Source of the DNA: an uncultured Verrucomicrobia subdivision 3 bacterium
GTDB taxonomy: Bacteria; Verrucomicrobiota; Verrucomicrobiia; Limisphaerales; UBA11358
DNA length: 64,000 nt
Assembly: GCA_903911825.1 (NCBI GenBank)
Contig: CAIWFB010000194.1
Span: 2,070-66,069, forward strand
Direction: 5' to 3'
Shown: positions 6,759 through 30,114 of the stretch, piece after piece
Layout: every line of letters starts with the position of its first letter
Numbering within the stretch: the first letter of the stretch is position 1
The notes under the pieces: model-generated
Told to the model about the DNA's origin: nothing
What the model saw: the letters and a program-made list of their open reading frames with translations, nothing else
The model's database searches: none
Program-made: the position numbers and the translations under genes

Positions 6759-7064
6759 TCAGGTGGCGAACAAGGCGTGGAGATTCATCGCCCCATGTTT
6801 GACCCGCAGCAAGACCAGTTCTTTTTCGCGGGCGGTATAAAAAATCAAGTAGCGGGGAAAATCTTTGACTGCATAGGTGCGGATGCCGTCGGGCTGCAAA
6901 TCGCGGCGCACTCGCCCGAGCTGCGGATTTTTCTGAAGCAGGGCGAGCGTTCGGTAAATGGAGTTTTCCCAGCGCGTGGCAATTTCCTTGTTGGCTTCGC
7001 GGGCCAGATATTCCACGCCCTCGGCAAAATCCGTCTCGAAGACGGAACTGAACAGGAGCTTCAT
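6759..7064 (-). CDS. Type II toxin, ParE/RelE family
   Basis: The 101-aa product has the typical ParE-like C-terminus (IFYTAREKELVLLRVKHGAMN). It overlaps the upstream small gene by 4 nt. Confidence 0.72.
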   Translation of the reverse strand: MKLLFSSVFETDFAEGVEYLAREANKEIATRWENSIYRTLALLQKNPQLGRVRRDLQPDGIRTYAVKDFPRYLIFYTAREKELVLLRVKHGAMNLHALFAT

Positions 7065-7318
7065 CCGCGCACCTTGGCCTTGGCTTTCGCGGCTAGGTCG
7101 CGCAGGCGATCCAGACTGCCCGGGCGAAATTCACTCGCCAGCGCCTCATCAATCCACTTCTGCTGGGTCTTGGAAACTAGCGCATCTTCCAGATCAAAAC
7201 TCATTTCGATACGCGCCATCGCTTCCTGATTCACACTCCGGAAATTGCGTCCAGCCGAAGCTGCCAGCCGCATTTTAAGTTCTTTGGGGATGCCTTTGAC
7301 CTGTAAGTCTGCGCTCAT
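7061..7318 (-). CDS. Ribbon-helix-helix antitoxin (Arc/FitA-like) partner of the ParE toxin
   Basis: The 85-aa product has an N-terminal RHH pattern (LQVKGIPKELKMRLAASAGRNFRSVNQEAMARI). The ATGA overlap with the toxin gene supports the pairing. Confidence 0.6.
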   Translation of the reverse strand: MSADLQVKGIPKELKMRLAASAGRNFRSVNQEAMARIEMSFDLEDALVSKTQQKWIDEALASEFRPGSLDRLRDLAAKAKAKVRG

Positions 7319-8321: not shown

Positions 8322-10463
8322 CTAATTTGTGACATTTACCGGCGCGACCTCAACGTGCGCGGCGCTGCTGGCGGTGCGGGTCAAATTGCGCGCTTCGAGA
8401 TGCACGAGGGCATTGATATCGAGAATCAAACCCACGCGACCATCTCCGAGAATCGCGGCCCCGGCGAGCAGATGGTTTTTGTAAACCATCATGTCGTTCA
8501 AATTTTTGATGACGACTTCCTGTTTATGCAGCAGGCCGTCCACGAGCAGGCAGCGCAAATCGTTACCCGCTTGCACGACCACCACGATTCCTTCCGACGC
8601 ATCCGTTTTGGTACGCGTGCCGGCGCTGAACAGTTCGTTCAGGCGCAGCAAGGGAATGATGCGGCCACGGACATTCACGACTTCCGCGCGGTTTTGCACG
8701 CGGGAAACCATGCCCGGCTGCGGGCGGAACGATTCGCGCACCGAGAGCGTCGGGAGGATGTAGCGTTCTTCGCCCACCTTGACGATGAAGCCGTCAATGA
8801 TGGCTAGCGTGAGCGGCAAACTGATTTTGAATAGCGTGCCCTTGCCAGTCTGCGACGAGATTTCCACGCGCCCACGGAGCCGTTCAATGTTTCGGCGCAC
8901 CACGTCGAGACCGACGCCGCGTCCGGAAAGATCGGTAATTTTTTCCGCTGTGGAAAAACCAGCGGCGAAGATGAAGTGAAAGATTTCTTCGTCCGAAAGT
9001 TTCGCGTCCGCTGCGACCAAGCCGCGCTCCACAGCTTTCTGAAAAATTTTATCTTTGTTCAATCCCGCGCCATCGTCTTCGATTTCCACCACAATGGTTC
9101 CGCCTTGATGATAGGCGCGCAAAGCCAGTGTGCCAGTGGGCGACTTGCCGGCGGCGACCCGCTTTTCGCTCGTCTCGATACCGTGATCCATGGAGTTACG
9201 GATCATGTGGAGCAAGGGATCGTTCAATTCTTCCACGACGCCGCGATCGAGTTCCGTGTCTTCGCCGGTCGTGATGAATTGCACTTTTTTGGAATGCTTC
9301 GCCCCGATGTCGCGCACGACGCGGGACATCTTTTGGAACACGCCGCGAATGGGCACCATGCGCAGCGACATGCTGACGCGCTGCAATTCTTTCGTGATAC
9401 GCCCGAGCTGCGCGATGTTGCGCACGACCTGCGGGTTCACATTGGAAAGTTCGTTCAGATTCTGGCCGACGAGCGATTGGGCGATGACCATTTCGCCGAC
9501 GAGATCGAGCAGGCCATCGAGCTTGCCGGTATCCACTTTGACGACGGAAGCGTGTTGTTTATCTGCGGCCGGGGCGTGTTCACCAGCCTCGACGGCAGCG
9601 GGCGTTGGGCCGGAAGTTTTGGCGGCGGCGACGGGTGCGGCATGCGCTTTGCCATCAATGATGTCCTGCGCCTCCATCTTCAAGTCGGCGGTCGAAATGA
9701 CAATCGCCTTCACGGGCCGCTTGCCGGTCAATTGACCTTCAATCTCATCAATGAACTGCTTGAGCACATCGCGGCCGCGCAAAATGGTTTCGATGACCGG
9801 CGCATCAATCACGATTTTGCCCTGCCGCGCCTGATCCAACAACGATTCGAGCACGTGCGCGAGGCGGTTGATGGGCAGCAAATTCAAAAATCCGGCGCCG
9901 CCTTTGAAGGTATGGAACGCGCGGAAAATCGTGTTCAACATCTCGGAATCGTCCGGCTGATTTTCCAAGACGAGGACGCCTTGTTCGATGTTGTCGAGGT
10001 GCTCGCGAGATTCGGTGATGAATTCCTGCAGCAACTCCGCGTCATCCGCCAAATTCAAGTTTAGTGGTGGATCATCCGTGTGGACAGTCGGGCTGTTCGG
10101 TTCGACGGGGGCCGCAGGCACGGGGGCCGTCGCCACAACCACGATGGGCTCATTCGCTACGGGCGGGGCAAGCTCGGGCATGGGCGGCGCTGCGCTGGCC
10201 AGCGCGCGGACTTGCACCAGCAAAACCTGCAACCAAGCGATGTCATCAAGGGAGAAATTCGCTCCGGATTCAACGATTTTCACCATGCGCTCCCAGGCAT
10301 CCGCACAGAAAGCCGTCAGCTTGGGAATATCTTTGGCCTCATCGCGGAGGTTGCCGATCAAATCCAGAATAGGAAATTGACCTTGGGTGTCTCCGGCCTT
10401 GGCGGTGGAGACTTCCACTGCCAATTGACCGGCCAATTTGATTATCCGACTCGCATCGCTCAT
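8322..10463 (-). CDS. cheA: Chemotaxis-type histidine kinase CheA
   Basis: Present are an Hpt motif (FRAFHTFKGGAGF), a dimerisation region, a HATPase domain (EDDGAGL, GRGVGLDVV) and a C-terminal CheW-like domain. An extra roughly 150-aa N-terminal region precedes Hpt. I set the start at the ATG at 10463; the track ORF starts at a TTG at 10493. Confidence 0.9.
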   Translation of the reverse strand: MSDASRIIKLAGQLAVEVSTAKAGDTQGQFPILDLIGNLRDEAKDIPKLTAFCADAWERMVKIVESGANFSLDDIAWLQVLLVQVRALASAAPPMPELAPPVANEPIVVVATAPVPAAPVEPNSPTVHTDDPPLNLNLADDAELLQEFITESREHLDNIEQGVLVLENQPDDSEMLNTIFRAFHTFKGGAGFLNLLPINRLAHVLESLLDQARQGKIVIDAPVIETILRGRDVLKQFIDEIEGQLTGKRPVKAIVISTADLKMEAQDIIDGKAHAAPVAAAKTSGPTPAAVEAGEHAPAADKQHASVVKVDTGKLDGLLDLVGEMVIAQSLVGQNLNELSNVNPQVVRNIAQLGRITKELQRVSMSLRMVPIRGVFQKMSRVVRDIGAKHSKKVQFITTGEDTELDRGVVEELNDPLLHMIRNSMDHGIETSEKRVAAGKSPTGTLALRAYHQGGTIVVEIEDDGAGLNKDKIFQKAVERGLVAADAKLSDEEIFHFIFAAGFSTAEKITDLSGRGVGLDVVRRNIERLRGRVEISSQTGKGTLFKISLPLTLAIIDGFIVKVGEERYILPTLSVRESFRPQPGMVSRVQNRAEVVNVRGRIIPLLRLNELFSAGTRTKTDASEGIVVVVQAGNDLRCLLVDGLLHKQEVVIKNLNDMMVYKNHLLAGAAILGDGRVGLILDINALVHLEARNLTRTASSAAHVEVAPVNVTN

Positions 10464-10539
10464 GTTCAGGGTTGTCGGACTCGGGTCCAACAAGGTTTCA
10501 TCGGCTAACCCTGAAAACGACTGAAGGAAAAACTCTGCC

Positions 10540-11934
10540 TCACGCCGCGCCCAGCAGATAATCTTCCAGCCGCGTGTGGCGAATGACGTTGCGCACGGCC
10601 GCCGTGGGATTCTTGAACTGCAGATTCAGGTCGCGGCGCTTGAGATTCTTTTTGAAGCGCAACATCAGGCCGATGCCTGTGCTGTCCACGAACGTCACGC
10701 GCGATAGCTCGATCACTACCGTCATGCCCGCCGTGGCCTGCGTCAGCTCGGATTCCGTGTAGGCGCCGAGTTCCACCGCGTTGAGCGCCGTGACTTCGCC
10801 GGACCAGCGGATGGATAATTCCTTCTCCTGCACCCCGCTCGTCACCACCGGCGCGCGGGCGGCGCTTTCCATGAGAATACGCGCCCCTTGCACGCTGGCT
10901 TGCACCGTGAAAAATTCCTCCAGCTTCATCAGCTTCAAGGCGGCCTCCACGGCGGGCTTGGGCGAAACGAGGAAAAATTGATAGCCCAACTCCCGCGCGC
11001 GGCGACGTAGCTTGATGAGAATGCCCACGCCCGTGCTATCCACGAACGTCGTCGCCGATAGATCAAACATCACGTGGCCGCTCTCCACCGCGCGCAACCA
11101 TTCCGCCTGATACGTGCTCGCTTCCGCTGCGCCTAATTGCTCCGGCGCGCGAATGACCAGATTGCCGAATGGATCGGGAATCACTTCTGCTTTCGCCGCC
11201 GCCGCCGCTTTTAATTTCTTTTTGCCGCGCAATTGCCAGCGTTGGCGCACCACGGCGGCGTTGAATTTCCACGAATCGCTCCACGAAACTTCCTTGGCCT
11301 TGCCCACCGTGCCCGTGAGAAAATCAAACGTCATGCCCGCGCCCAGCGTGAAGGGCACGCCCGACTCGCGGTAATTCATGTTGATCCACTTCTCCTGTTT
11401 GGGACAACCGAAGGCCACGAGCAAAATATCCGGCTTGGCCTCGCGCAACCGGCGCAGGATGTCGCCGTGATCCATCTCCAGCAACGGCGCTTCCGGTGGC
11501 GAATAGACGCCTACGAGATTCAATTGGGGATGCCGCGAACGGATCTTTTCTCCGACGGCCGCGTCCGTGTCCGCGCCGCCGAGCAGAAAGACGCGCCAGC
11601 CGTTCTTCTCCGCCAGCGCGAGCAATTGCGGGATCAGGTTCGCCGCCGTCACGCAGCCGGGCAGCGGATTGCCGAGCATCCGCGAGGCGCGGACGACGGG
11701 CGTTTCTTCGGCCAGAATCAGATGCGCATCGAACAGGATGCGGCGGAGCTCCACGTCTTCCAGCGCGGCGGAGAGGAAATTCACGCCCACCGTGGTGGCG
11801 TAATGCGGCTGGCGCGAGCCGATCATCTCGGCGGCCAACGCGAGGACATCCGCCAGCGTGACGTTATCAAACGGCACGCCGAGAATGGCGATCGGGCTGC
11901 GATCCAATTTATTTACGATGTTATTCGCCTGCAT
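10540..11934 (-). CDS. WecB/TagA/CpsF-family glycosyltransferase fused to two C-terminal STAS domains
   Basis: The N-terminal ~230 aa match the WecB/TagA/CpsF pattern (ILGVPFDNVTL..., FLLGG, VAFGCPKQEKWI). Two STAS domains follow, each with the phosphorylatable DSTG motif (TFVDSTGVGILIKL and TFVDSTGIGLMLRF). I set the start at the ATG at 11934; the track ORF starts at a TTG at 11973. Confidence 0.8.
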   Translation of the reverse strand: MQANNIVNKLDRSPIAILGVPFDNVTLADVLALAAEMIGSRQPHYATTVGVNFLSAALEDVELRRILFDAHLILAEETPVVRASRMLGNPLPGCVTAANLIPQLLALAEKNGWRVFLLGGADTDAAVGEKIRSRHPQLNLVGVYSPPEAPLLEMDHGDILRRLREAKPDILLVAFGCPKQEKWINMNYRESGVPFTLGAGMTFDFLTGTVGKAKEVSWSDSWKFNAAVVRQRWQLRGKKKLKAAAAAKAEVIPDPFGNLVIRAPEQLGAAEASTYQAEWLRAVESGHVMFDLSATTFVDSTGVGILIKLRRRARELGYQFFLVSPKPAVEAALKLMKLEEFFTVQASVQGARILMESAARAPVVTSGVQEKELSIRWSGEVTALNAVELGAYTESELTQATAGMTVVIELSRVTFVDSTGIGLMLRFKKNLKRRDLNLQFKNPTAAVRNVIRHTRLEDYLLGAA

Positions 11935-12000
11935 CACTGAATGAAAAGTAGCAGCGCCCGCCGTGAAGTCCAAGCTTGGAAACTAAGCCGATTTTGCCCA

Positions 12001-12080
12001 GTAGCAGCCGACGTGAGTCGGCTCGGAAATTTCTTGGTGCGCGACGAGGGATGAATGAGCGGACGCACGTCCGCTGCTAC
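12001..12080. repeat. Inverted pair of 24-nt REP-like hairpin units
   Basis: Unit 1 is GTAGCAGCCGACGTGAGTCGGCTC (12001-12024, + strand). The reverse complement of 12057-12080 reads GTAGCAGCGGACGTGCGTCCGCTC. Each unit is itself a hairpin. The pair sits just after the stop of the PEP-CTERM gene. Confidence 0.5.
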
Positions 12081-12084
12081 AGCC

Positions 12085-12741
12085 TTAGGCGGCTCCGCGA
12101 TTTTTCCAGCGCCAACCGCCGACCAGCAAGGCGCTCAAGCCCAGCAAACTCCAAACGCCCGGTTCGGGAACGGCGACGGTGGAGAATTGGATATTGTCGA
12201 GGATGCCACCGGTTTGAGCGGGAGTTCTAAAAAGTATTTCTCCCGTTTGGCCAGCGTAAGACGAAATATCGGCCCCATAAATCGTGTAGCTTCCAGTCGT
12301 GCCGATTACAGCAAACGACAGTGCCTGATTGTTGAATGTAATTTGCATTCCACCAATGCTTCCCAAAAAAATCAGGGACTGAGCCGAAAAGGGAATCAGA
12401 CCGGTCTGACCAATGGCGGCGCTATGTGCTCCGCCCACTGAGCCACCTTGTAGGAACATGAAATATTTTCCCTGAACTGGCGGGTAACTTACTGGGTTAT
12501 TCGTGCCATAAATATTAATAACGGGTCCGCCAAGACTATAACCATTGGAAACAATGTAGGTATCAGCAAATCCATCGTAGTAAGGAATCCAACCAGGAAT
12601 TGCATTCGTGGCGGATACGGTGCCGCCAAGCCGCCCAGCAGTAAATGTAGCACTCTCAAAATTCAGATTCACAAACCCCTGCGCCTGCACCATCACCACA
12701 CTCACTTGCAGCCAGATCAAAATGAATAGTTTAGTTTTCAT
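12085..12741 (-). CDS. PEP-CTERM sorting-domain secreted protein
   Basis: It has a signal peptide (MKTKLFILIWLQVSVVMVQAQG) and the C-terminal motif VPEPGVWSLLGLSALLVGGWRWKNR (PEP, then TM, then a basic tail). By eye it is more A+T-rich than its neighbours. Confidence 0.8.
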   Translation of the reverse strand: MKTKLFILIWLQVSVVMVQAQGFVNLNFESATFTAGRLGGTVSATNAIPGWIPYYDGFADTYIVSNGYSLGGPVINIYGTNNPVSYPPVQGKYFMFLQGGSVGGAHSAAIGQTGLIPFSAQSLIFLGSIGGMQITFNNQALSFAVIGTTGSYTIYGADISSYAGQTGEILFRTPAQTGGILDNIQFSTVAVPEPGVWSLLGLSALLVGGWRWKNRGAA

Positions 12742-12784
12742 ACGTCAGTTCATTTTCCCCGCAGTTCACGGGATAGCTTAACCT

Positions 12785-13174
12785 TTAACTTTGCTCCGAG
12801 CCCAGCAATTTCTGCACTTCGCCCAGCAGTTGATTCGGACTGAATGGCTTGGCCAGAAAGAGCGCGGCGCCGGAAGCTTCGGCTTCCACTTTGGTCAGCG
12901 CGTGGCCTTTGGCGGTGAGCACCACCACGGGAATGGCGCGCGTGGCGGGATTTTCCTTCAACTGCCGCAGTGCGCCCAAGCCGTCCAGCCCCGGCATCAT
13001 CACATCCAGCACGATGAGCTGCGGCAATTGCGCGCTGGCGGCGGCGAGCGCTTCGCGGCCATCGCGGCAACTGATGACTTGGTAGCCGCCTTTTTTGAAG
13101 GTCATCTCCAGCAGCCGCAACATGTAGATCTCGTCGTCGGCCAACAGCACTTTTTTCGGTTCGGTCGGGTTCAT
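12785..13174 (-). CDS. Single-domain response regulator (CheY-like receiver)
   Basis: The 129-aa product has the receiver residues: LLADDE, the phospho-acceptor Asp in LIVLDVMMPGLDG, VVVLTAKG and LAKPF. It overlaps the upstream gene by ATGA. Confidence 0.9.
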   Translation of the reverse strand: MNPTEPKKVLLADDEIYMLRLLEMTFKKGGYQVISCRDGREALAAASAQLPQLIVLDVMMPGLDGLGALRQLKENPATRAIPVVVLTAKGHALTKVEAEASGAALFLAKPFSPNQLLGEVQKLLGSEQS

Positions 13175-14949
13175 GTCAGGTTTCGGATGAAAAGGAACGT
13201 CTGGTCATCGGCCAACGGCGCCTCGCCGCGAAACGCCGCCAGTCGGGCGAGCAACGCTTGCTTGCCGGTGATGGCGTCGCGCGTTTGCGCGGCGGCTTCG
13301 GCGAACAGGCGGGTCAATTTATTTTCCGCGAGCATTTCACCGGTGGCATTGCGGAGTTCGCTCAAGCCATCGGTGTAAAGCAACGCCGCCGCGCCCGCCG
13401 CGAGCGCGGTGACCGTCTGCGGATACGTCGTGTCGGGTTCGATGCCGAGCGGAAAACCCGCGCTGCCGGGCGCGACGGCATCGGCTTCGCCCGCGCGCCA
13501 CACGAGCAATGGACAATGCCCGGCGCTGGCGGAGATGAGTTCGGCGCGGGCGGGATTCACATAAACCACTTTGGCGGTGATGAACATGTCCACGCGCGAC
13601 AGGTCGGGGAAGAGAATGCGATTGGCAGCGGCGAGCAATTCGCCCGGCGCGGAAAATAATTGGGGCATCGAACGAACGGTGCTGCGCAGCACGGCGGCGA
13701 AGAGCGCGGCGGGCACGCCTTTGCCCATGACATCGGCGATGACCAACAACACCGCGCCGTCGCTCGCAGGAATGGCATCGTAAAAATCACCCCCGACCTG
13801 ACGGGCACTTTCGCACGACGCGGCCAGCGCGAACGGCGGGCACGCGGGCAAATGCGCGGGGAGCAGCGAGCGTTGGATGTCGGCCGCAATCTGCAATTCC
13901 CGCTGCGTGACCTGCGTGCGCGTGCGGTCGTCGAGCAGGCGGGCATTGACGATCTGGATCGCGAAGAAATCGATGAACGAGTGGAGCAAGTTCACTTGCG
14001 CCGCCGTGAAAGGACGTTCCGCCGCGCGTCGCCCGAGTGTGGCGGTGCCGACGAGCTGATCCGCCACAAAAAACGCGTGGCAAACGCCATGGCCCAAGGG
14101 CATCAACGCACGGAGCGGGTCGCCTTCCGGCAGCGGTTCTTCGGGCCCGAACCAGATATCCTGGTGATTCCGCGCGGCACCAACTTCAGCAGCAGCGGAA
14201 TTTTTCCCCAACGCCACGGGCGGCAACTTGGCTCCGGTTTCCGGCGCGGAAAAAACCGTTTCCAATTGCGAGCCATCAGCGGAAACCAGGCGCAACACAG
14301 CGGCATCGGCTTCGGCGATCTGCATGAGATCGCGCAAGAGGCGCGGGGCGAATTCGCCCAAATCCGTCTGCACACCGAGCTCGGCACTGTAACGGAACAT
14401 GGCCACGAGACTTTCGTAGCTGGACGCCAGCTCGGCAGTCATCTCGGTCAGCGCGGTTTCGGCGTCGGCGAGTTTCTGCTGCAACTGGCTGACGTCGGGA
14501 AATAATTCATGGCCGCCCGCAGGCCGAGCGCGGCGCAGCACCAAAACATTTTCGGCCAAGCCGCGCAGATAGAAAATTTTATCCGTCAACGATTCCATCA
14601 AGTAGAGGCCGCGACCGTGCTCGGCGTCTTCTTCCGGCAACTTGATTTCCGTGGGCCACTCGAAGCCGGCAGTGTGATCGGTCACGCGCACTTCGATGTC
14701 GCGGGCACCACAGGAAACTTCGATGGCTACAGGAGATTTCCGCGCCTCGGGGCTGGCGTATTTGACGGCGTTGTTGGCCGCCTCGACGAGCGCGAGTTCC
14801 CACGCGCCCAGCTCGGCTTCGTTCAAACCGCGTTCCGCCAGCCAGCGGCCGACCTGCTGCGTGGCCCCGCGCACGGCGATAAATTCGCACGGAATTTCCA
14901 GGCGCAACACGATCCGATGGTCGGCATTGGGGCTGTTGGCGGCACTCAT
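13171..14949 (-). CDS. Fusion protein: RsbW-like HATPase (anti-sigma serine kinase type) + GAF + PP2C/SpoIIE phosphatase
   Basis: The N-terminus reads ELALVEAANNAVKYA...VTDHTAGF...GRGLYLM (HATPase_c_2 type). The centre is GAF-like. The C-terminus has PP2C motifs (GGDFYD, VIADVMGKGVPAA, TDGLSE, DDQTFL). I set the start at the ATG at 14949, which makes an ATGA overlap with the upstream kinase stop; the longer track ORF has an Arg-rich, implausible leader. Confidence 0.85.
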   Translation of the reverse strand: MSAANSPNADHRIVLRLEIPCEFIAVRGATQQVGRWLAERGLNEAELGAWELALVEAANNAVKYASPEARKSPVAIEVSCGARDIEVRVTDHTAGFEWPTEIKLPEEDAEHGRGLYLMESLTDKIFYLRGLAENVLVLRRARPAGGHELFPDVSQLQQKLADAETALTEMTAELASSYESLVAMFRYSAELGVQTDLGEFAPRLLRDLMQIAEADAAVLRLVSADGSQLETVFSAPETGAKLPPVALGKNSAAAEVGAARNHQDIWFGPEEPLPEGDPLRALMPLGHGVCHAFFVADQLVGTATLGRRAAERPFTAAQVNLLHSFIDFFAIQIVNARLLDDRTRTQVTQRELQIAADIQRSLLPAHLPACPPFALAASCESARQVGGDFYDAIPASDGAVLLVIADVMGKGVPAALFAAVLRSTVRSMPQLFSAPGELLAAANRILFPDLSRVDMFITAKVVYVNPARAELISASAGHCPLLVWRAGEADAVAPGSAGFPLGIEPDTTYPQTVTALAAGAAALLYTDGLSELRNATGEMLAENKLTRLFAEAAAQTRDAITGKQALLARLAAFRGEAPLADDQTFLFIRNLT

Positions 14950-17900
14950 AAGCGCGTTTGTTGACGAAGCCAGTGCTGAAGTTTTTCCGCCGCGCCCGGG
15001 GTTTGCGCGGAAATTTTTTCCAGTTCTCGAATCACTCGTTGGGCGTCGCGGCCTTCGGACGCATCTTCGACGGCGAGGAATAATTCGCCTAGCGCATTCA
15101 GGCCGAACAAGCGCGCCAAGCCTTTGAGCGAATGCGCGGCGCGCTGCAATTCGGGCCATTGTTCATCAACATGCAAGCGGTTGAGTTCGGACAGTCGCTC
15201 GGGTAATTCCGCCAGAAAATCACTGGCCATTTCCACAACGGATTGGCGATCCAGTTCGGTGCACAGTTGTTCGAGTCGCGTGGGATTGAAGTCCTCGTGC
15301 GAACCATCATCGGCGGGCACGGCGGCGAGGAGCGCCTGGTAAAGTTGCTGCGCGGTGAACGGCTTGGCGAGGTAATCGTCCATGCCCGCCGCGAGGCAAC
15401 GCTCGCGTTCGCCGACAAGCGCGTTGGCGGTGAGGGCGATGATGCGGACGTGGCGCTGGGGATTTTTCTCGGCTTCGATTTTGCGAATGGCGGCGGTGGC
15501 TTCGAGGCCGTCGAGCTCGGGCATGTTGCAATCCATGAGCACGGCATCAAATTCGCCGAGAATGAAACGATCCACGACTTCGCGACCGTTCACGGTCCAA
15601 TCCGCTTTGGCGCCGAAGGACGCGAGCATCAATTGGCCGAGCTTGCGGTTGAAAGGATGATCTTCCGCCGCGAGAATTTTTAGTCCGGAAATGGGCGTTT
15701 GCACCGCGCCGCTGGGGTCGCGGCGGCGGAGCTCGGTTTCCGTGACGGGCGTCGCGGGGCGGATGGCTTCAACTTTCTCGCGGAGCACGAGGCTGACGAG
15801 CGCGTTGAAAAACGGTTCTTCTTTGGCTGGCTTGAGCAAGACGCTGGCAAAACTGGCGATCTCTTTTTCATCCGCTCCGACACTGGCGGTGGGGCTGGAG
15901 AGCAAAATGAATTGCACCTGTTCGCGGCTCGCCACGATCAGATCGCGCAACTCGGCGCCGCCGGTGATGAGCATTTCATCGTCCAGCAACACCACGGGAA
16001 TCGGCGCGGTGCGCGAGCCGTGTTGGAGTTCGCGAAACAGTTCCGGCACGGTGGTGGTGGCCCGATTTTCCACGCCCCAACCGCGCAGTTGTTCGCCGAG
16101 GGATTCACGCAGATTCGCACTGGTGGCAGCGATCAAAACGCGCAAAAAAACCAGGCCGGGAAAATTGTGAGGTAACGGCGCGGTCGCAGCGGGGGCCAAC
16201 GGTAATTCAAACCAGAAGGTGGAACCCGCGCCGCTGGTGCTGGTCACGCCGATCTTGCCGCCCATCAATTCCACGATTTTACGGGAAATGGCGAGGCCGA
16301 GGCCGGTGCCGCCAAATTTCCGCGACGACGAGGTGTCGGCCTGCGTGAACGGCTGAAATAATTTTTTGATCTGTTCGGCCGTCAAGCCGATGCCGGTGTC
16401 GGTGACTTCAAAGCGCAAATTAATCTTGCCCGGCAAGGCGAGCAGTGATTCCACGCGCACGGTGACTTCGCCGTGCTCGGTGAATTTCACGCCGTTGCCG
16501 ACGAGGTTGAGCAGCACTTGTCGCAAGCGCGCGGCGTCGCCGACCACGCGAGCGGGCACGGTGCGTTGGACGATAGCGGTGAGGCCAAGCGATTTTCCAG
16601 GCTCGCGCGAAACGGAATTTTCCAGCACGCTATCAATGACGGCGCGCAGGGAAAACTCCTCCTGCGCGATATTCATTTTCCCCGCTTCAATTTTGGAAAA
16701 ATCGAGGACGTCGTTGATGACAAGGAGCAGAGAATTGGCGCTCTCGGCGGCGGCGCTGGCGAATTCGCGCTGGCGCGGGTCGAGACGCGTCTGGGTGAGC
16801 AGCTCAATCATGCCGAGAATGCCGGTGAGCGGCGTGCGAATCTCGTGGCTCATGTTCGCGAGAAATTCGCTCTTGGCGGCGTTCGCCCGATTAGCCTGCT
16901 CGGCGGCGGCGCTGGATTCATTCGCGGCGAACTGCAACTGGCGATTCACCTGTTCGAGCGCGGCCTTGGCTTCCTGCAAAGCGAGTTCCGCTTTTTTGCG
17001 CGGCGTGATGTTCTGGATGACGGCTTGAAATTCAGCGACTTTATCCGCGCTGGAATCGAGGCGACGCAAATTATATTGCTGCCATTCAATGTGGCCATCG
17101 GCAGCTTCGGCACGCCGATCGAAATTCAGCACCGGCTTTTCCTCGGGCAACTGGATGATGTGTTCCTGAAGCGTCCGCGCTTCGTTTTTGACGAGGTCGT
17201 GGTAGAAATTGGTGCCGAGTAATTCCGCCTCCAACTTGCCGTGGAACCGACAGAATGCCGGATTTACAAAGGTGATTTGGCCGTCGGGCCGAAAGCGGCA
17301 GATCAAATCTTCCTGGTCCGCGACGACCGCGCGCAGCCGTTTTTCGTTTTGCACCAGGTCCCGCTGAGCGCGGCGGCGCTCCGCAGCGGCGGCGGCGAGG
17401 AGGAGATTGGAAATCGCCAAAATGCCGATGTAGCTACCGACGAGCCGCAGGCTGTTGGCTTCATTGCCCGTCACGAACGGCCCGCTGCCCTGTTTCAGTG
17501 AATAGATCGCCAGCGTGGCGACGACTACCGTGCTCGTCGCCGCACCGCGCGGGCCAAAACGCAGCGCGCTCCACACTAGAAAGGGATAAGGCAGATAAGC
17601 CAGCGGATATTGTTGCGGCCCATAAACAAACCAGGTGTCGAACGCCAACAAGGTGCCGCCCACCAAGCCCGCCGCGCAGACCAAGGCTTCGAGACTACGA
17701 ACTAAATTCAAGCGCACCGAGGACGGCGCAGCCCACGTAATGAGGACCGGCGTGATCACCAGCGATGCCAAAGCGTTCGGCACCCACCAGGCTAACGTCA
17801 CCGGAAAAATGGCATCCCACGGAATTTTGCCGGCATACGCCAAGCCCACCGCCGTGAAACAGGCATTGACCGTGGTGCCGAGCACGCTCGCCAGCAGGAT

Positions 17901-18269
17901 GTAGCCCACCGCATCGCGCGTTTGCTCCATCGCATTATCGAAATTCACGAAGCGCTTCAGCAGATACGCACAGATGATCGCGCCAAAGGTGTTACCCAGC
18001 ACCAGGCCCAGCGTGGACAGACCCAGCGGGGCGCCACTCATGAAAGAAACTAAAACCACGCCCAGCGCGATCCCCGGCCAGTAGCCGTAGCCAAAAATGA
18101 GAATCGCTGCGAGCGCCACACCGGCGGCGGGCATCACTAATTGAGTGCTCCCAGCCAGAAAGGCGGCCTCCCGACCGAGCAACCCGCCCATAAAATAAAG
18201 CGCCATCAGCATCACCACGCGCGTAGCGGTGGTCAGGTGCGATTTTTGGGGGCGGTTCACGACGCCCAT
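14946..18269 (-). CDS. Hybrid sensor histidine kinase (MASE1 membrane domain-PAS-HisKA-HATPase-degenerate REC-REC-Hpt)
   Basis: The 1107-aa product has a multi-TM MASE1-like N-terminus, a PAS domain (FVNPAFCRFHG), an H-box (FLANMSHEIRTPL), G-boxes (DTGIGL, GGTGLGLAIS), a receiver (AVLMDCNMPELDG...LAKPF) and an Hpt (AAHSLKGLARLFG). Confidence 0.9.
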   Translation of the reverse strand: MGVVNRPQKSHLTTATRVVMLMALYFMGGLLGREAAFLAGSTQLVMPAAGVALAAILIFGYGYWPGIALGVVLVSFMSGAPLGLSTLGLVLGNTFGAIICAYLLKRFVNFDNAMEQTRDAVGYILLASVLGTTVNACFTAVGLAYAGKIPWDAIFPVTLAWWVPNALASLVITPVLITWAAPSSVRLNLVRSLEALVCAAGLVGGTLLAFDTWFVYGPQQYPLAYLPYPFLVWSALRFGPRGAATSTVVVATLAIYSLKQGSGPFVTGNEANSLRLVGSYIGILAISNLLLAAAAAERRRAQRDLVQNEKRLRAVVADQEDLICRFRPDGQITFVNPAFCRFHGKLEAELLGTNFYHDLVKNEARTLQEHIIQLPEEKPVLNFDRRAEAADGHIEWQQYNLRRLDSSADKVAEFQAVIQNITPRKKAELALQEAKAALEQVNRQLQFAANESSAAAEQANRANAAKSEFLANMSHEIRTPLTGILGMIELLTQTRLDPRQREFASAAAESANSLLLVINDVLDFSKIEAGKMNIAQEEFSLRAVIDSVLENSVSREPGKSLGLTAIVQRTVPARVVGDAARLRQVLLNLVGNGVKFTEHGEVTVRVESLLALPGKINLRFEVTDTGIGLTAEQIKKLFQPFTQADTSSSRKFGGTGLGLAISRKIVELMGGKIGVTSTSGAGSTFWFELPLAPAATAPLPHNFPGLVFLRVLIAATSANLRESLGEQLRGWGVENRATTTVPELFRELQHGSRTAPIPVVLLDDEMLITGGAELRDLIVASREQVQFILLSSPTASVGADEKEIASFASVLLKPAKEEPFFNALVSLVLREKVEAIRPATPVTETELRRRDPSGAVQTPISGLKILAAEDHPFNRKLGQLMLASFGAKADWTVNGREVVDRFILGEFDAVLMDCNMPELDGLEATAAIRKIEAEKNPQRHVRIIALTANALVGERERCLAAGMDDYLAKPFTAQQLYQALLAAVPADDGSHEDFNPTRLEQLCTELDRQSVVEMASDFLAELPERLSELNRLHVDEQWPELQRAAHSLKGLARLFGLNALGELFLAVEDASEGRDAQRVIRELEKISAQTPGAAEKLQHWLRQQTRL

Positions 18270-18425
18270 TTTTTAGCACGCTTCATTCAGCGAGCCTAGC
18301 GGGAAGTTGTCATTCATCTACCGCGGAAAATTTACTGAAGACGGAAAAATTATTTACCTGCGCGGCGGCAACTGGCATTGTCTCCGCGAGGATTCGGATC
18401 GCGGACTGCCAAAATTATTTTTGCC

Positions 18426-21400
18426 ATGCACACTCAATTGCCAGCTCACTTGATCGCCCACATCAACGTCAAACTCGCTCTCATCGGCTGTTCGCCGGTG
18501 CCGCTTGAAGGCGATAAAGAATTCGTCGAAATCGCCGCCGCCATGGCCGCGCAATCGCGGGAAAAAGATCGTTTGCTCGGAAATTACCTCTGCCCGGCCG
18601 ACCAGCGCATCCAGACGTTTCTTCACGATTATCTCGATGATATCCCTACGCCGAAGTTGCCCACGCGCACCTTCACGCTCGATCGCCCCGGCCTCGCCCG
18701 CGTGCTGTCGCTGCCGGTGGATCGCAATGATTTTGCGTCCGACATCATCAATTCTTACCGTGTCAAACAAGGCGTTTTGCACAATCCGAAAAGCGATCGT
18801 CGCACAACGGCGGGAATTTTTCACGTCTGCGAAGGCGGCCTACCCATTCCCGACGACAAACTCGGCGTGCCAAAAGCGACGTTCGCCAAAATCCTGCAAC
18901 TCGCGCTGACGCCCCCGGCGGAATTATTAAAATTACCGTTCACCTCCACGCAGCCGAAACCGGCGGAATGTTTCGTCTCGCTGCTGCTGCGCCCGCTCGT
19001 ATGCCCGGAAGTTCCCGGTTTCACGTCTAAAAAATCCATGGAGGTGCGCTTTTTCGTGCCGGGCAACTTGGTCAGCAACCTGGATTTCGTCGAAGCTATT
19101 TTCGAAAACGGCGGCGATCCGATTTTGCCGGAGAACGATTCCGCGTTGGACACGGAACATTGGAGCGGCCACACCGGCTGCGTGATTCTTGCGCCGCACC
19201 TCATCCGCGCCACCAAGAAATCCGTCGGCCTGCCACACTTCGATCAAGCTACGGAACGTCAGCGCCGTGATGGCATGTGCTGGAAGACCGAAGACGAACT
19301 TTACAACAAGGGAAATGCTTTCAAGCTCACTTGCCGCGACGAAGCGGGCGTCATCCTCACCATCATCGCGGACAACTATTTTGGTTACTGCAAAAAAGAA
19401 GTGAAGACGCAGTTGAGCTACGCGGCGAATCTGTTTGGCATTGCCGAGGAAGAACACGCGGGCGGCGCGCTCGTTTATCGCAGTTACGATTTGGGCGAAG
19501 AATTCAGCGGTGAAGATCACGTCCGCAACACCGGCCACACGTTTGATGAGATGGCGAAATTATTCGCAGGTGTCATGGAAGTGAAACCCGAAGGCTACGC
19601 GATTGATAAAAAATTTCCCGAGATCATCTACGTGCCGCACGACGCGCACTTCGACTTACACACGCAGAAAGTTTCGTGGACGAACACCACCGGCGATCAC
19701 AGCATCAAGCTTTCGCCCGGGAAAAATTACGTGCGCCCCTCTGGCTACCAAGTGCGCATGGAAAAACCGCCCGGCTACGGTCGCCAGTGGCGTTTGGTCG
19801 CGACGGTTGCGGAAGGCACCTTCTGCCACAAGCCCTGCACAGTTTCCGGCGGCGGCAAATCGGAAATTTCCAAACCCATCACCGACGCAATTTTGACCGG
19901 GTCCATTTACGTCGCCGACGTGAAGAATGATTTCGACCGCGTGGAAGAACTCATCAATCGCGATTACTCCAACCGTTTCGCCGAAGCGTCGCGCAAAGAT
20001 CATCGCAGCGTGCTCTCGCCGGAACGTTCGCTGGGTTCCGTCATCAAACTACTCACGCCGGACGAGCATGATTACACGCCCGCCTACAACACCTGGATCG
20101 CCGGCGTGCCGCAACACGTCAAAGAACTTGTCTTCGTCGTGAAACGTTATTTTAAACCGGAATGGGGCGCGAACTGGCGCGATCATTTCAGCGTGGACAT
20201 AATCAACGGCACGCCCGGCAACGAACTCAAATGCGACAATCGCAAGCTGGTCACGACCTATTTGCGCGTAGGTTTCGCGGCGGATGGCGCGTGGCGCACG
20301 TTCGGTTTGCGTAAAGATTTTCACCCCGCCGTGAAGGTGCAGATGGAAGACGACATCACGGCCTCGACCGTCGTGCCCGCTAGCCGTTTGGAAAATTTAC
20401 CTGAGGGCACGGACAAAAATCTCTCGCTCAAATTCGTTCAGAATACGGAACAACGTTTGTTCCAACGGCCCGACGACGCGATTCATCGCGGCTACGACAA
20501 GCAGGCGGAATTGGATTTCGTGCAGCCTGAAAATTTCTTTTCCAACTATCAACCGCTCACGCCCAAAGACGCTCAGGAATTGGTCGAAGACGCGCTGGGT
20601 TTTCATCAATTCACTGCGCCCATGCAGAAGTTCATTCAGGAAGTCGCCACGACGGGCGAGCCGGATTATTTTGTCTGCACCGCCAATCCGCGTATCGTGG
20701 ACGGTAAGCCCACAAAAAATCCGCGCTACCTCCAGAAACGTCCTGACCTCGTGCGCGCGGGCGAAACGTATCTCGCCGAAATCTCCACCCGCCTGCGCCG
20801 TCGCGTGCCGCCGGGTCTGCCGCTGCATACGCCGGTGACGGCCGTATTGCCGGGACGCCGCAATAATCCGCCCGAAGCTGGCATCCGCGCGCTCGCGTGC
20901 TACAACCCGGTTCACTACATGGAATTGCCGGAGCTGTTCATGGAAGTCATTTGCAGCATGACGGGCAAATCGCCTTCCACCACCGGCGCCGGTTCCGAAG
21001 GCGCGCTGACGAAAGGACCGTTCAATGCGCTGCCCCCGATCATTGACCTGAACAACGCCCTCGTGTCGTTCATCCTCACGGGTCACAACGCGTTCGTCAC
21101 CGCCGCCGGATACGTCGGGCCCAACTTGCGCGTGGATCACGATGTCAGTTTGATTGTGCCGGAAATCTGGTGCCGCCTGACCACCGAGGAGCGCGATCCC
21201 AAATTTCTCATCGCCAATCGGTTTCTGGAAAAATGCCAGGACTTCGAGCACGGCGGGAAGAAAGTGCTCGCGAGCCGCCTCGGCTGGCGCATCAATGCGC
21301 GCTTCGTGCACGCGTTCTTTGGTCGCGTCTTCAATCATCCGCACGCCGTGTTCACCGAAGCGATGCTCAAGCCGGAGTTGCAGGGCAAAGACATCTTCGT

Positions 21401-21839
21401 GGACGGCATGGACAACATTCTCGCCACTCAAAAACGCGTGGCCAAAATGTATTTCGACGATGGTAGCATTGCGCAAGCGAGTCCGCCGCTGAAGGCGCTC
21501 CTGCACATCATGCTGCACGATGAATTTGAGGGTAAAGGTTTGGAACACGCCGATGTGCGAAAACTCTTCACGCGCGAAAACCTGCTGGCCAGCGATTGGT
21601 ATGCAGCGCGTTTGGTCGCGAAACAAAAGGTGGATCGTAAGCTCTGGAAGCGGCACGTCGAATATCTGGCGAACTTCTTGAAGCGCCCGAATTACGCCGA
21701 CATGGCAGAGCGCTTGAACATTGGCGAACGCCTGACGAACGCCCGCAAAACACTCGCCGCCGTGGAAGCGCCGGAATATCTCCAGCAACTCATCGGCACG
21801 ATTGGAGCGGAGCCGGTGGAGAATTATTTGGTGAAGTAA
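18426..21839 (+). CDS. Large (1137 aa) conserved soluble protein of uncertain function; tentative candidate PPi-dependent PEP carboxykinase-like enzyme
   Basis: It is a single uninterrupted ORF with ordinary, non-repetitive composition and no TM segments or signal peptide. I set the start at the ATG at 18426. The function guess rests only on the unusual ~130 kDa size class and the overall enzyme-like character, not on motifs I can verify. Confidence 0.6.
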   Translation: MHTQLPAHLIAHINVKLALIGCSPVPLEGDKEFVEIAAAMAAQSREKDRLLGNYLCPADQRIQTFLHDYLDDIPTPKLPTRTFTLDRPGLARVLSLPVDRNDFASDIINSYRVKQGVLHNPKSDRRTTAGIFHVCEGGLPIPDDKLGVPKATFAKILQLALTPPAELLKLPFTSTQPKPAECFVSLLLRPLVCPEVPGFTSKKSMEVRFFVPGNLVSNLDFVEAIFENGGDPILPENDSALDTEHWSGHTGCVILAPHLIRATKKSVGLPHFDQATERQRRDGMCWKTEDELYNKGNAFKLTCRDEAGVILTIIADNYFGYCKKEVKTQLSYAANLFGIAEEEHAGGALVYRSYDLGEEFSGEDHVRNTGHTFDEMAKLFAGVMEVKPEGYAIDKKFPEIIYVPHDAHFDLHTQKVSWTNTTGDHSIKLSPGKNYVRPSGYQVRMEKPPGYGRQWRLVATVAEGTFCHKPCTVSGGGKSEISKPITDAILTGSIYVADVKNDFDRVEELINRDYSNRFAEASRKDHRSVLSPERSLGSVIKLLTPDEHDYTPAYNTWIAGVPQHVKELVFVVKRYFKPEWGANWRDHFSVDIINGTPGNELKCDNRKLVTTYLRVGFAADGAWRTFGLRKDFHPAVKVQMEDDITASTVVPASRLENLPEGTDKNLSLKFVQNTEQRLFQRPDDAIHRGYDKQAELDFVQPENFFSNYQPLTPKDAQELVEDALGFHQFTAPMQKFIQEVATTGEPDYFVCTANPRIVDGKPTKNPRYLQKRPDLVRAGETYLAEISTRLRRRVPPGLPLHTPVTAVLPGRRNNPPEAGIRALACYNPVHYMELPELFMEVICSMTGKSPSTTGAGSEGALTKGPFNALPPIIDLNNALVSFILTGHNAFVTAAGYVGPNLRVDHDVSLIVPEIWCRLTTEERDPKFLIANRFLEKCQDFEHGGKKVLASRLGWRINARFVHAFFGRVFNHPHAVFTEAMLKPELQGKDIFVDGMDNILATQKRVAKMYFDDGSIAQASPPLKALLHIMLHDEFEGKGLEHADVRKLFTRENLLASDWYAARLVAKQKVDRKLWKRHVEYLANFLKRPNYADMAERLNIGERLTNARKTLAAVEAPEYLQQLIGTIGAEPVENYLVK

Positions 21840-29154: not shown

Positions 29155-30114
29155 GTGTCATCCGTTTTGGTCGCCACGCTTCCCATCATGGTTGGACGTA
29201 AAATTGTTGCCGAATCATTTCTCGCCGCGCACCCCGCTAAACGCTGGGTGCATGACCGCACTGTCGAATTATTGACCTCGGAAACGGTGGTGCCCGCATT
29301 TTCTGCCGTGGTGACCAAGCTCACGACGATGACACGCGATGAATCCATAGACTTGGACGACTTCGCCGATTTAGTGGCACTGGATCAAGGACTTTCGACA
29401 CGTTGTCTGCGGGCGGCCAATGCGCCCAGCCGCGGCGGTCAAGCCATCAGCAATATCCAAGAAGCGCTCTTCCTCATCGGCCTGAAAGAAATGCGGCGCA
29501 TCGCCTTGACGGTCGGCGTCATGGATAATTTCAATCATCTCCGCATCAAAATTAATTGGCGGAAATTCTGGCTACACAGCGTTTTGGTCGCACGCTTGAC
29601 GGATAAATTAGCGGGCGCCTTCCGCGAGGTGAATGGGATGGAATATCTGGCCGGGCTGATGCACGACATCGGCAAATTGATTTTGGAACACTACTTTCCC
29701 CGTGAGTTTGAGGCCATCGTTCTGCGCTCGATGGAACGGCGCTGTGGTCACGCCACCGCTGAATTTGATTTGTTGGGCCTCGATCACGCCTGTATCGGGG
29801 CGGCGCTGTGTCAGACGCTGCATGTCCACCCGCACATTGTGCATGCCGTGCAATTTCACCACCAACCCATTCACCCCGCGCACACCGGCAATCCCGAAGG
29901 CGATGGCGGCTTTCTTTCCGCCTGCATCAGCGTCGCTGACTTTTTGGCGAACCTGCGCGAAATCAACATCGGCGGCCAAAAAGAACTCGCCTATAAACTG
30001 GAGGACTTACCGGAATGGAATTACCTCACTGAATTTTTTGATTGTCGCGGCCTCGCTCTAGACTTGGACGAAGAAATTGAACTCGCCGAGCAAGAAATCA
30101 GCTCCATTACCTAA
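29155..30114 (+). CDS. HDOD-domain signalling protein
   Basis: The HDOD pattern is present (LDDFADLVALDQGLSTRCLRAANAP..., LAGLMHDIGKLIL, H..GLDHACIGAAL). The track start is a GTG at 29155; an ATG at 29188 is an alternative. Confidence 0.8.
   Translation: MSSVLVATLPIMVGRKIVAESFLAAHPAKRWVHDRTVELLTSETVVPAFSAVVTKLTTMTRDESIDLDDFADLVALDQGLSTRCLRAANAPSRGGQAISNIQEALFLIGLKEMRRIALTVGVMDNFNHLRIKINWRKFWLHSVLVARLTDKLAGAFREVNGMEYLAGLMHDIGKLILEHYFPREFEAIVLRSMERRCGHATAEFDLLGLDHACIGAALCQTLHVHPHIVHAVQFHHQPIHPAHTGNPEGDGGFLSACISVADFLANLREINIGGQKELAYKLEDLPEWNYLTEFFDCRGLALDLDEEIELAEQEISSIT

Follow-up and report, generated by a model that had tools for sequence, protein, structure and literature searches.

Can serine phosphorylation of a STAS domain act directly on an enzyme of envelope polysaccharide synthesis? 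The question is raised by the gene at 10540..11934 on the minus strand of the window (the whole stretch of DNA analysed here, 64,000 nucleotides from an uncultured Verrucomicrobia subdivision 3 bacterium), which encodes a 464-amino-acid GT26-like/STAS/STAS protein (database cluster P0001). Partner-switch phosphorylation directly on envelope polysaccharide enzymes has so far been shown once, in cyanobacteria. A first-pass annotation had taken the window protein for a possible enzyme output of such a switch, an interpretation that is right for the family and probably wrong for the window gene: by the residues that it has lost, the protein is likely a pseudo-glycosyltransferase without the GT26 catalytic machinery.

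Gene coordinates and domain architecture

The longest open reading frame (ORF) spans 10540..11973 on the minus strand (TTG start, 477 amino acids). Starting at the ATG at 11934 gives a product of 464 amino acids, identical to P0001 and to the gene as annotated on five further contigs from this species, and the N-termini of homologues likewise begin MQ..., in agreement with this start. In Pfam searches the protein matched Glyco_tran_WecG (PF03808) at amino acids 83-226 in the numbering of the 477-residue ORF (E 2e-33; score 116 bits, cut-off 27.4) and STAS (PF01740) in two stretches (E 4e-28); the NCBIfam models wecG_tagA_cpsF (TIGR00696) and ant_ant_sig (TIGR00377) scored 71.3 (cut-off 69) and 82.4 (cut-off 53.45), respectively. 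An AlphaFold2 model built on 120 homologues (predicted local distance difference test score 90.1, predicted template modelling (TM) score 0.81) was compared with known structures in Foldseek, where the N-terminal domain matched the TagA core (5wb4, 7mpk) at a target TM-score of 0.89-0.91 and a root-mean-square deviation of ~2 A. Profile and structure searches thus bear out the WecB/TagA/CpsF domain and the two C-terminal STAS domains that had been read from the sequence, at the right coordinates. Absent from that reading were the early end of the WecG match, which for the window protein breaks off after position 142 of the 168-position profile but reaches 168/168 in an intact relative (L016), and the PEP-CTERM-like gene that lies between the receiver gene and the GT26-STAS gene (see below). 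The parts of the protein are as follows.

11305..11892, minus strand: GT26 (WecG/TagA/CpsF)-like core, amino acids 15-210; fold kept, active site degenerate.
11284..11310, minus strand: appendage-deletion scar, amino acids 209-217 (TVGKAKEVS), from the alignment with intact relatives.
11230..11283, minus strand: long helix rich in W, R and K, amino acids 218-235, leading from the GT26-like domain to STAS domain 1 (helix H218-235 of the model).
10879..11148, minus strand: STAS domain 1, amino acids 263-352 (Pfam, Foldseek).
11023-11046, minus strand: FVDSTGVG motif of STAS domain 1, amino acids 297-304.
11035-11037, minus strand: S300, putative phospho-acceptor in FVDSTGVG, aligned with SpoIIAA Ser58.
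10549..10842, minus strand: STAS domain 2, amino acids 365-462 (Pfam, Foldseek).
10669-10692, minus strand: FVDSTGIG motif of STAS domain 2, amino acids 415-422.
10681-10683, minus strand: S418, putative phospho-acceptor in FVDSTGIG, aligned with SpoIIAA Ser58.

The STAS domains matched RsbV, SpoIIAA and TM1442 at target TM-scores mostly of 0.7-0.83 (0.82-0.83 to RsbV and TM1442). In HMMER alignments S300 and S418 fell on the SpoIIAA serine (F-M-D-S*-S-G; chains 1th8_B and 1h4y_A) and on TM1442, and the canonical serine context claimed for both motifs therefore stands; the motif of RsbV, which we take to be D-S-T-G, is identical to that of the window domains. In STAS domain 1 the D-S-x-G positions did not vary among the 120 closest clusters, and the threonine hardly did. 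Because STAS domains 1 and 2 share 33% identity, the tandem arrangement points to an old internal duplication.

Active site of the GT26-like domain

The conserved pocket of TagA consists of Thr37, Asn39, Asp65, Arg83, Gln167 and Glu168, of which Asp65 is the catalytic base, Asn39 contacts the donor sugar and Arg83 contacts the acceptor diphosphate; an aromatic residue in the Tyr137 loop helps to hold the donor, and arginines of a C-terminal appendage clamp the diphosphate (PMC6493773, PMC8784642). TagA is crippled by D65A, by deletion of the appendage, or by mutation of R214, R221 or R224 (PMC6493773, PMC8784642).

The window protein was aligned to T. italicus TagA (7mpk, 5wb4); the aligned TagA chain stops at residue 222, and R224 was therefore not scored. 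Eight TagA core positions (T37, N39, D65, G66, R83, G86, Q167 and E168) and the appendage were then scored in the window protein and in 80 fetched loci of relatives (L001-L080). By this scoring 61/81 were intact (8/8 positions plus the appendage) and 18/81, the window protein included, were degenerate (2-3 of 8 positions, no appendage); 1/81 was too truncated for scoring, although what remains of it looks degenerate. The substitutions in the window protein are as follows.

11785-11787, minus strand: G50, at TagA N39.
11704-11709, minus strand: E76-E77, at TagA D65-G66 (P-D-G replaced by A-E-E).
11653-11655, minus strand: C94, at TagA R83.
11491-11493, minus strand: E148, at the aromatic residue of the uracil-stacking loop.

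The catalytic base Asp65 is thus missing from the window protein, which has A-E-E (E76-E77) where all 61 intact relatives have D-G; at the D65 position the degenerate copies carry E, G, D or N. The positions of N39 and R83, which are N and R in 61/61 intact relatives, are G50 and C94. A segment of about 25 residues that holds the equivalents of TagA E210, W211, R214 and R221 is also gone: intact relatives read G-T-F-K-R-A-P-x-W-M-Q-K-S-G-T-E-W-I-F-R-M-L-Q-E-P-R-R-L-x-x-R-Y at the appendage (consensus written RAPxWMQKSGTEWIFRxxQEPRRLxxRY), and the window protein reads G-T-V-G-K-A-K-E-V-S. The AlphaFold2 model of an intact representative (P0076) has additional helices at 208-234 that are absent from the window model. 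Retained in the window protein are T48 (T37), Q180-E181 (Q167-E168) and D204 (D191), and it shares with TagA and WecG an N-terminal GVPFD strand-turn and a PKQEKW loop. The linking helix at amino acids 218-235 is conserved in degenerate and intact clades alike.

These losses bear on the first-pass reading, that of an active GT26 glycosyltransferase under the direct control of phosphorylation in its STAS domains. It can appeal to significant GT26 homology and a TagA fold, to E76, which keeps a carboxylate at the D65 position next to the retained T37, Q167, E168 and D191, to the purifying selection on the GT26-like domain described in the next section, and to a mechanism proven for another sugar transferase, All4160; for the intact relatives it is very plausible. 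For the window protein an enzyme output is unlikely because N39, D65, R83 and the appendage with R214 and R221 are lost, and loss of D65, R214 or R221 is enough to cripple TagA. The loop aromatic is gone as well, deletion of the appendage or mutation of one of its arginines inactivates TagA, the lost positions drift within the degenerate clade, and no polysaccharide genes were found in the 64-kb window (by tblastn and by Pfam searches of the larger ORFs) or in the flanks of the degenerate copies. Enzymatic activity of the window protein is accordingly considered improbable.

Size and evolution of the family

At E <= 1e-5 a word-indexed search returned 1,230 relatives; the top 120 of the 1,230, with the window's own cluster set aside, all combined WecG with STAS and were 63-91% identical. 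An exhaustive search of 50%-identity representatives gave 337 clusters at E <= 1e-30, and a scan of one genome per species gave at least 580 loci. Automatic annotations name members of the family "WecB/TagA/CpsF family protein/anti-anti-sigma factor" or, misleadingly, by the TagA reaction. The 80 fetched loci came nearly all from metagenome-assembled genomes (MAGs) of Verrucomicrobiota (Limisphaerales, Pedosphaera, "subdivision 3", Phragmitibacter). Several (L008, L011, L018, L034, L044, L012, L059, L061 and L033), 40-68% identical to the window gene, are labelled otherwise (Bifidobacteriaceae, Sulfotelmatobacter, Haliangiales, Methylomirabilota or Cyanophyceae, for example); in gene content they agree with the Verrucomicrobiota loci, so that they look mis-binned or mislabelled.

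Among near-full-length representatives, 91/116 were fully intact and 16/116 fully degenerate. In a neighbour-joining tree the degenerate clade was monophyletic (18/18) and nested among intact forms, with intact L009, L015, L016, L017, L019, L021 and L029 as its sister, so that the degenerate lineage is placed within an extensive family of GT26-STAS-STAS enzymes of Verrucomicrobiota, the other members of which are apparently active. A distant member in the SPRUCE 67 MAG (L063, 9965-11434) has the signature ANDEPGEE and no appendage, and because it degenerated independently, catalysis appears to have been lost more than once in the family with both STAS serines kept.

Of the positions conserved at >=90% across the 61 intact relatives, the degenerate clade has lost 26 and kept 91. 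The former concentrate on the functional sites and are N39, D65, G66, R83, G86, the uracil-stacking aromatic (F to E/D), the R-A-P motif, E210, R214, R221 and neighbours; the latter include the core of the fold, P-K-Q-E-K-W, D191 and the two D-S-T-G motifs. The degenerate lineage has thus lost residues that serve in donor binding, as the base, in acceptor binding and in the appendage, and has kept the fold and both putative phospho-serines. Of the 120 closest clusters 116 are degenerate, and the eight positions vary among these 116 in more than 30 combinations, a sign of relaxed constraint.

Only 13 new residues are specific to the degenerate clade, mostly conservative or hydrophobic swaps, and a neofunctionalised active site found no support in them. 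The domain might instead be a ligand input that binds a nucleotide sugar or lipid-linked intermediate, alters access to the STAS serines and so reports precursor supply to the kinase/phosphatase. An N-terminal non-STAS (sensor) domain followed by a C-terminal STAS domain is the layout of RsbR and YtvA, the fold is conserved together with some of the pocket (T37, Q167-E168-K169-W170, D191), and the gene stands in a signalling operon. Such a sensor is nevertheless unlikely, given that the residues that hold the donor in TagA (N39, the Tyr137-loop aromatic and the diphosphate-clamping appendage arginines) are lost and that no new conserved pocket residues have appeared.

A further possibility is that the N-terminal domain is an inert remnant and that the tandem STAS domains work alone, as an anti-anti-sigma-like antagonist or a stressosome-like unit. 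Catalytic residues are indeed lost, the STAS domains hold the best-conserved functional sites, and stand-alone STAS genes adjoin the module in L016 and L058. Within the degenerate clade, however, conservation of the GT-like core comes close to that of the STAS domains (0.71 against ~0.74) and far exceeds that of the linker (0.53); in the sister intact clade the core identity is 0.87. The clade is old and rich in species (116/120 closest clusters), and its window cluster has no sigma or anti-sigma gene. Mere decay is therefore held to be very unlikely. Because the identity of the GT-like core (71%) is near that of STAS (74%) and above that of the linker (53%), the degenerate domain appears to have lost its chemistry yet stayed useful.

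Genomic context in the window

The genes around the GT26-STAS gene lie on the minus strand in the order hybrid histidine kinase, RsbW-GAF-PP2C, receiver (REC), PEP-CTERM-like, GT26-STAS-STAS, cheA, Ppx/GppA, ParE toxin pair, epimerase and M48 peptidase. The nearest neighbours are as follows.

14946..18269, minus strand: hybrid histidine kinase; domains MASE1, PAS, HisKA, HATPase, REC and Hpt (domain search).
13171..14949, minus strand: 592-amino-acid fusion of an RsbW-like serine kinase (HATPase_c_2), a weak GAF domain and a PP2C (SpoIIE) phosphatase (Pfam).
12785..13174, minus strand: single-domain receiver, CheY-like (Pfam).
12085..12741, minus strand: 218-amino-acid secreted protein with a signal peptide and a C-terminal VPEP/hydrophobic/basic tail, PEP-CTERM-like; both profile hits are below curated cut-offs.
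8322-10463, minus strand: cheA, with Hpt, dimerisation, HATPase and CheW domains (domain search).

The hybrid kinase, RsbW-GAF-PP2C and receiver genes are co-oriented upstream of the GT26-STAS gene, and cheA is co-oriented downstream; the co-orientation noted at first pass is therefore borne out, with a plausible cognate kinase and phosphatase nearby. The stop-start pairs of the hybrid kinase and RsbW-GAF-PP2C genes, and of the latter and the receiver gene, overlap by 4 nucleotides, so that the three genes are translationally coupled. In the 13171-14949 product HATPase_c_2 scored E 4e-21 and SpoIIE E 1.5e-41, with the GAF match weak and under the gathering score. Its kinase domain keeps the N-box (Asn) and G2-box, and its phosphatase the four Asp-containing metal motifs (GGDFYD, DVMGKG, TDG and DDQT); the receiver likewise retains the DD, D57, T and K motifs. 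The product is a candidate kinase and phosphatase for both STAS serines, and the hybrid kinase is the likely phosphoryl source for the receiver.

Two neighbours were considered and set aside. The PEP-CTERM-like gene lies between the receiver and GT26-STAS genes in the window species only and has no counterpart in L001-L080, and it was rejected as a core part of the module. CheA was rejected as a member of the system, since none of the 80 related loci has a CheA homologue nearby and the adjacency is confined to the window species. No CheW, methyl-accepting chemotaxis protein or CheB/R gene is near cheA, and of CheY-like genes its surroundings contain just one, the receiver gene (12785-13174).

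No intact paralogue and no polysaccharide genes were found in the 64-kb window by tblastn with 22 neighbour families plus an intact protein and by Pfam searches of the larger ORFs. No sigma-factor domain was found among the cluster genes or the larger ORFs scanned, small ORFs elsewhere having been scanned in part; the cluster has no anti-sigma gene, and no stand-alone RsbT-like kinase was seen in it. Two further features flank this region.

6759-7318, minus strand: ParE-type toxin (101 amino acids) and an upstream 85-amino-acid putative antitoxin, overlapping by 4 nucleotides, between Ppx/GppA and an NAD-dependent epimerase.
18378-21839, plus strand: 1153-amino-acid ORF with no Pfam match.

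The latter gene is called as 1137 amino acids on other contigs and is listed there with PF26300 (pyrophosphate-dependent phosphoenolpyruvate carboxykinase, lobe 2). Other signalling genes, in which the window is rich and which have no link to the GT26-STAS gene, lie at 29155-30114, 33930-35651, 39323-40627 and 49543-50730; the types there are an HDOD protein, a histidine kinase with GAF-GAF, a REC-HisKA-HATPase kinase and a protein with a FIST domain.

Genomic context of relatives

Neighbour genes of the 80 loci were clustered into families and the common families annotated. Intact copies come after genes for a flippase (Wzx), glycosyltransferases (GT2, GT4) and a Wzy-like polymerase on the opposite strand, and are followed by GT4, an AAA ATPase, a Wzc-Wza fusion and Wza. 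The GT4 gene is directly downstream in 49/78 loci, with a 4-nucleotide stop-start overlap in L016, L019 and L029. The ATPase, Wzc-Wza and Wza products match XrtA/PEP-CTERM-system models best in NCBIfam, all below the curated cut-offs; a PEP-CTERM theme thus recurs between the polysaccharide clusters of intact relatives and the window. A sigma-54-type response regulator, recognised by sequence appearance and clustering, lies just downstream of Wza in L019 (17746-19086, minus strand), L029 (18732-20087, minus strand) and L021, and recalls SypG of the syp locus and PrsR of PEP-CTERM systems.

None of the 18 degenerate loci has these polysaccharide-cluster neighbours. Nine of them (the window, L001, L002, L003, L005, L006, L010, L014 and L025) follow a MASE1 hybrid kinase, RsbW-GAF-PP2C and/or a receiver instead; orthologues of the hybrid kinase adjoin the degenerate copies in L001 and L002 and are found near intact L016. 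The receiver gene is directly upstream of the GT26-STAS gene in L002, L003, L005, L006, L010, L014, L016 and L025, the pairing of RsbW-type kinase and PP2C is conserved in L003, L005, L006, L014, L016 and L025, and L010 retains the PP2C end and receiver at its contig edge.

The two contexts meet in L016, where an intact copy is preceded by a stand-alone STAS gene, RsbW-GAF-PP2C and a receiver and followed by GT4, ATPase, Wzc-Wza and Wza, an order presumed to be ancestral. In L031, L036, L038 and L065, PP2C followed by a receiver lies where the fetched region ends, about 9 kb upstream of the intact copy, and in L029 only the receiver falls within the fetched region upstream; the intervening genes in L029, L036, L038 and L065 are polysaccharide genes. 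L058 has a stand-alone STAS gene and an RsbW-like kinase at the corresponding position. The stand-alone STAS genes of L016 (7157-11464) and L058 (3815-5867) stand at the 5' edge of polysaccharide clusters with intact GT26-STAS-STAS, so that some lineages have three STAS domains competing for one kinase; the stand-alone kinase of L058 is followed by a type I phosphodiesterase-family gene. Both kinds of copy occur in one MAG, PLHK01 (bog_1402): L001, which is degenerate, adjoins the hybrid kinase, and L019, which is intact, stands in the polysaccharide cluster.

The proposal that serine phosphorylation controls polysaccharide synthesis at the enzyme, with no sigma factor, therefore divides: it is well supported for the wider family, in which 61/81 are intact and sit in exopolysaccharide clusters, some with RsbW-GAF-PP2C and a receiver, and it is unlikely for the window copy.

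Proposed mechanism and significance

The reading preferred here, to which we assign about an even chance, is that the window protein is a phospho-regulated pseudo-glycosyltransferase that signals through protein contacts in a SypE/SypA-like circuit. The MASE1-PAS hybrid kinase would pass phosphoryl groups via its Hpt domain to the small receiver, which would set the balance between kinase and phosphatase activity in the neighbouring RsbW-GAF-PP2C protein, in the way that SypE is governed by its internal receiver. The RsbW-GAF-PP2C protein would in turn phosphorylate and dephosphorylate S300 and S418; that it is the kinase for the window protein is reasonably probable. More speculatively, the phosphorylation state could pick the binding partner. 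The window protein might sequester the kinase domain, as in a partner switch, or it might bind an intact GT26-STAS-STAS paralogue or other polysaccharide machinery through a TagA-type dimer face. TagA without its appendage is a soluble dimer, the interface of which is otherwise covered by the appendage, and for this reason the same face should be permanently exposed in an appendage-less paralogue; among TagA dimer-interface residues, A40, A72, G163, G187, D191 and V192 are kept and G66 and F87 are lost. The output might then be exopolysaccharide assembly controlled by protein contacts and not by catalysis of its own, and a polysaccharide-related output is a little short of an even bet. A narrower version is that the dead paralogue serves as a phospho-controlled regulatory subunit of its active sister: according to the state of the two STAS serines it would either hold the kinase/phosphatase or bind the sister through the TagA dimer face, and so gate the committed step of PEP-CTERM-type exopolysaccharide assembly. 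This version is unlikely on present evidence.

Several points weigh against this account of the window protein. The N-terminal domain of the degenerate clade is clearly under purifying selection, as judged from its conservation, and the exchange of D65 for E retains a carboxylate beside the surviving T37, Q167, E168 and D191, so that altered or weak activity may persist. The receiver gene is separated from the GT26-STAS gene by 150 nucleotides plus an additional gene, and a promoter and terminator scan of 10300-13300 gave counts that did not exceed the shuffle expectation and so carried no information. Signalling genes are missing next to half of the degenerate loci, co-occurrence of degenerate and intact paralogues was shown for one MAG only, and the intact copy of the window genome, if there is one, lies outside the 64 kb.

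GT26 joined to two STAS domains occurs in hundreds of Verrucomicrobiota species within exopolysaccharide clusters, several of them with a SypE-like module at the cluster edge, and the window gene is a paralogue in which the switches survive and the chemistry is lost. The interest lies in the size of an unstudied family, in the clean split between enzyme and dead enzyme, and in a link from STAS regulators to glycosyltransferases. The abundance of Verrucomicrobiota in soil, peat and freshwater makes control of their exopolysaccharide ecologically relevant. If the window protein regulates an active sister or the kinase, it would be a clear bacterial case of a serine-phosphorylation switch that incorporates a pseudoenzyme. 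The narrower version, if true, would amount to a partner switch in which the place of the sigma factor is taken by an enzyme and that of the antagonist by the enzyme's dead twin, and by domain-fusion logic it would also suggest that free STAS regulators such as SypA act on glycosyltransferases.

Comparison with known systems

In the literature searched, nothing specific was found on a GT26-STAS fusion or on a pseudo-glycosyltransferase regulator of this kind. The broader statement at first pass, that no characterised example was known of serine phosphorylation controlling such an enzyme directly, is outdated. In Anabaena sp. PCC 7120, phosphorylation of Ser74 by Alr3423 inhibits All4160, in which STAS at the N-terminus is combined with Bac_transf, and the REC-SpoIIE phosphatase HenR reactivates it (Harada et al., Mol Microbiol 2026, PMC13555669). 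Its authors describe a partner-switching-like module acting directly on a polysaccharide enzyme, and regard the STAS plus Bac_transf architecture as essentially cyanobacterial (PMC13555669). All4160 is related to XssP of Synechocystis. With this system the window shares a STAS domain fused to a sugar-transferase fold, an RsbW-type kinase, a SpoIIE-type phosphatase and a receiver, and no sigma factor. All4160 has a single N-terminal STAS domain on a phosphoglycosyl transferase, whereas the window family has a GT26-type domain and two C-terminal STAS domains; kinase and phosphatase are separate in Anabaena and fused in the window operon; and the window copy, unlike All4160, has lost the catalytic residues; no polysaccharide genes were found near it. 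The concept suits the intact relatives: by sequence criteria, all 61 have STAS fused to a competent sugar transferase in polysaccharide clusters. A STAS-fused polysaccharide enzyme switched by serine phosphorylation is thus already known in All4160, and GT26-STAS-STAS is a second, independent and much larger case.

TagA/TarA and WecG have the same fold as the window protein, and the intact relatives keep their T37, N39, D65, R83, Q167, E168 and appendage. The window protein differs from them in lacking N39, D65, G66, R83 and the appendage, in about 230 additional C-terminal residues, and in standing outside any glycopolymer cluster.

RsbR, RsbS and YtvA resemble the window system in a non-STAS N-terminal domain followed by a phosphorylatable STAS domain, with an RsbW/RsbT-type kinase and a PP2C phosphatase. 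They differ in their single STAS domain, globin or LOV sensors, stressosomes and sigma-B output, no sigma factor having been seen in the window cluster.

The closest circuit layout is that of SypE and SypA. In Vibrio fischeri, SypE combines an RsbW-like kinase and a PP2C phosphatase in one polypeptide that acts on the STAS serine of SypA, a free 105-amino-acid STAS protein; its receiver, fed by the hybrid sensor kinases RscS and SypF, flips it between kinase and phosphatase, and the output is biofilm and polysaccharide below transcription (PMC10120452). A kinase and phosphatase in one protein, a receiver and a hybrid kinase with Hpt are all encoded in the window, and a sigma-54 regulator stands in the polysaccharide locus of syp as well as, putatively, of L019, L021 and L029. 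The central domain of SypE is a receiver, whereas the centre of the 13171-14949 product is a weak GAF domain and its receiver is a separate gene. SypA is free, whereas the STAS domains of the window protein are covalently attached to a (pseudo)glycosyltransferase, and this covalent link is a testable hint on the target of SypA-type STAS proteins.

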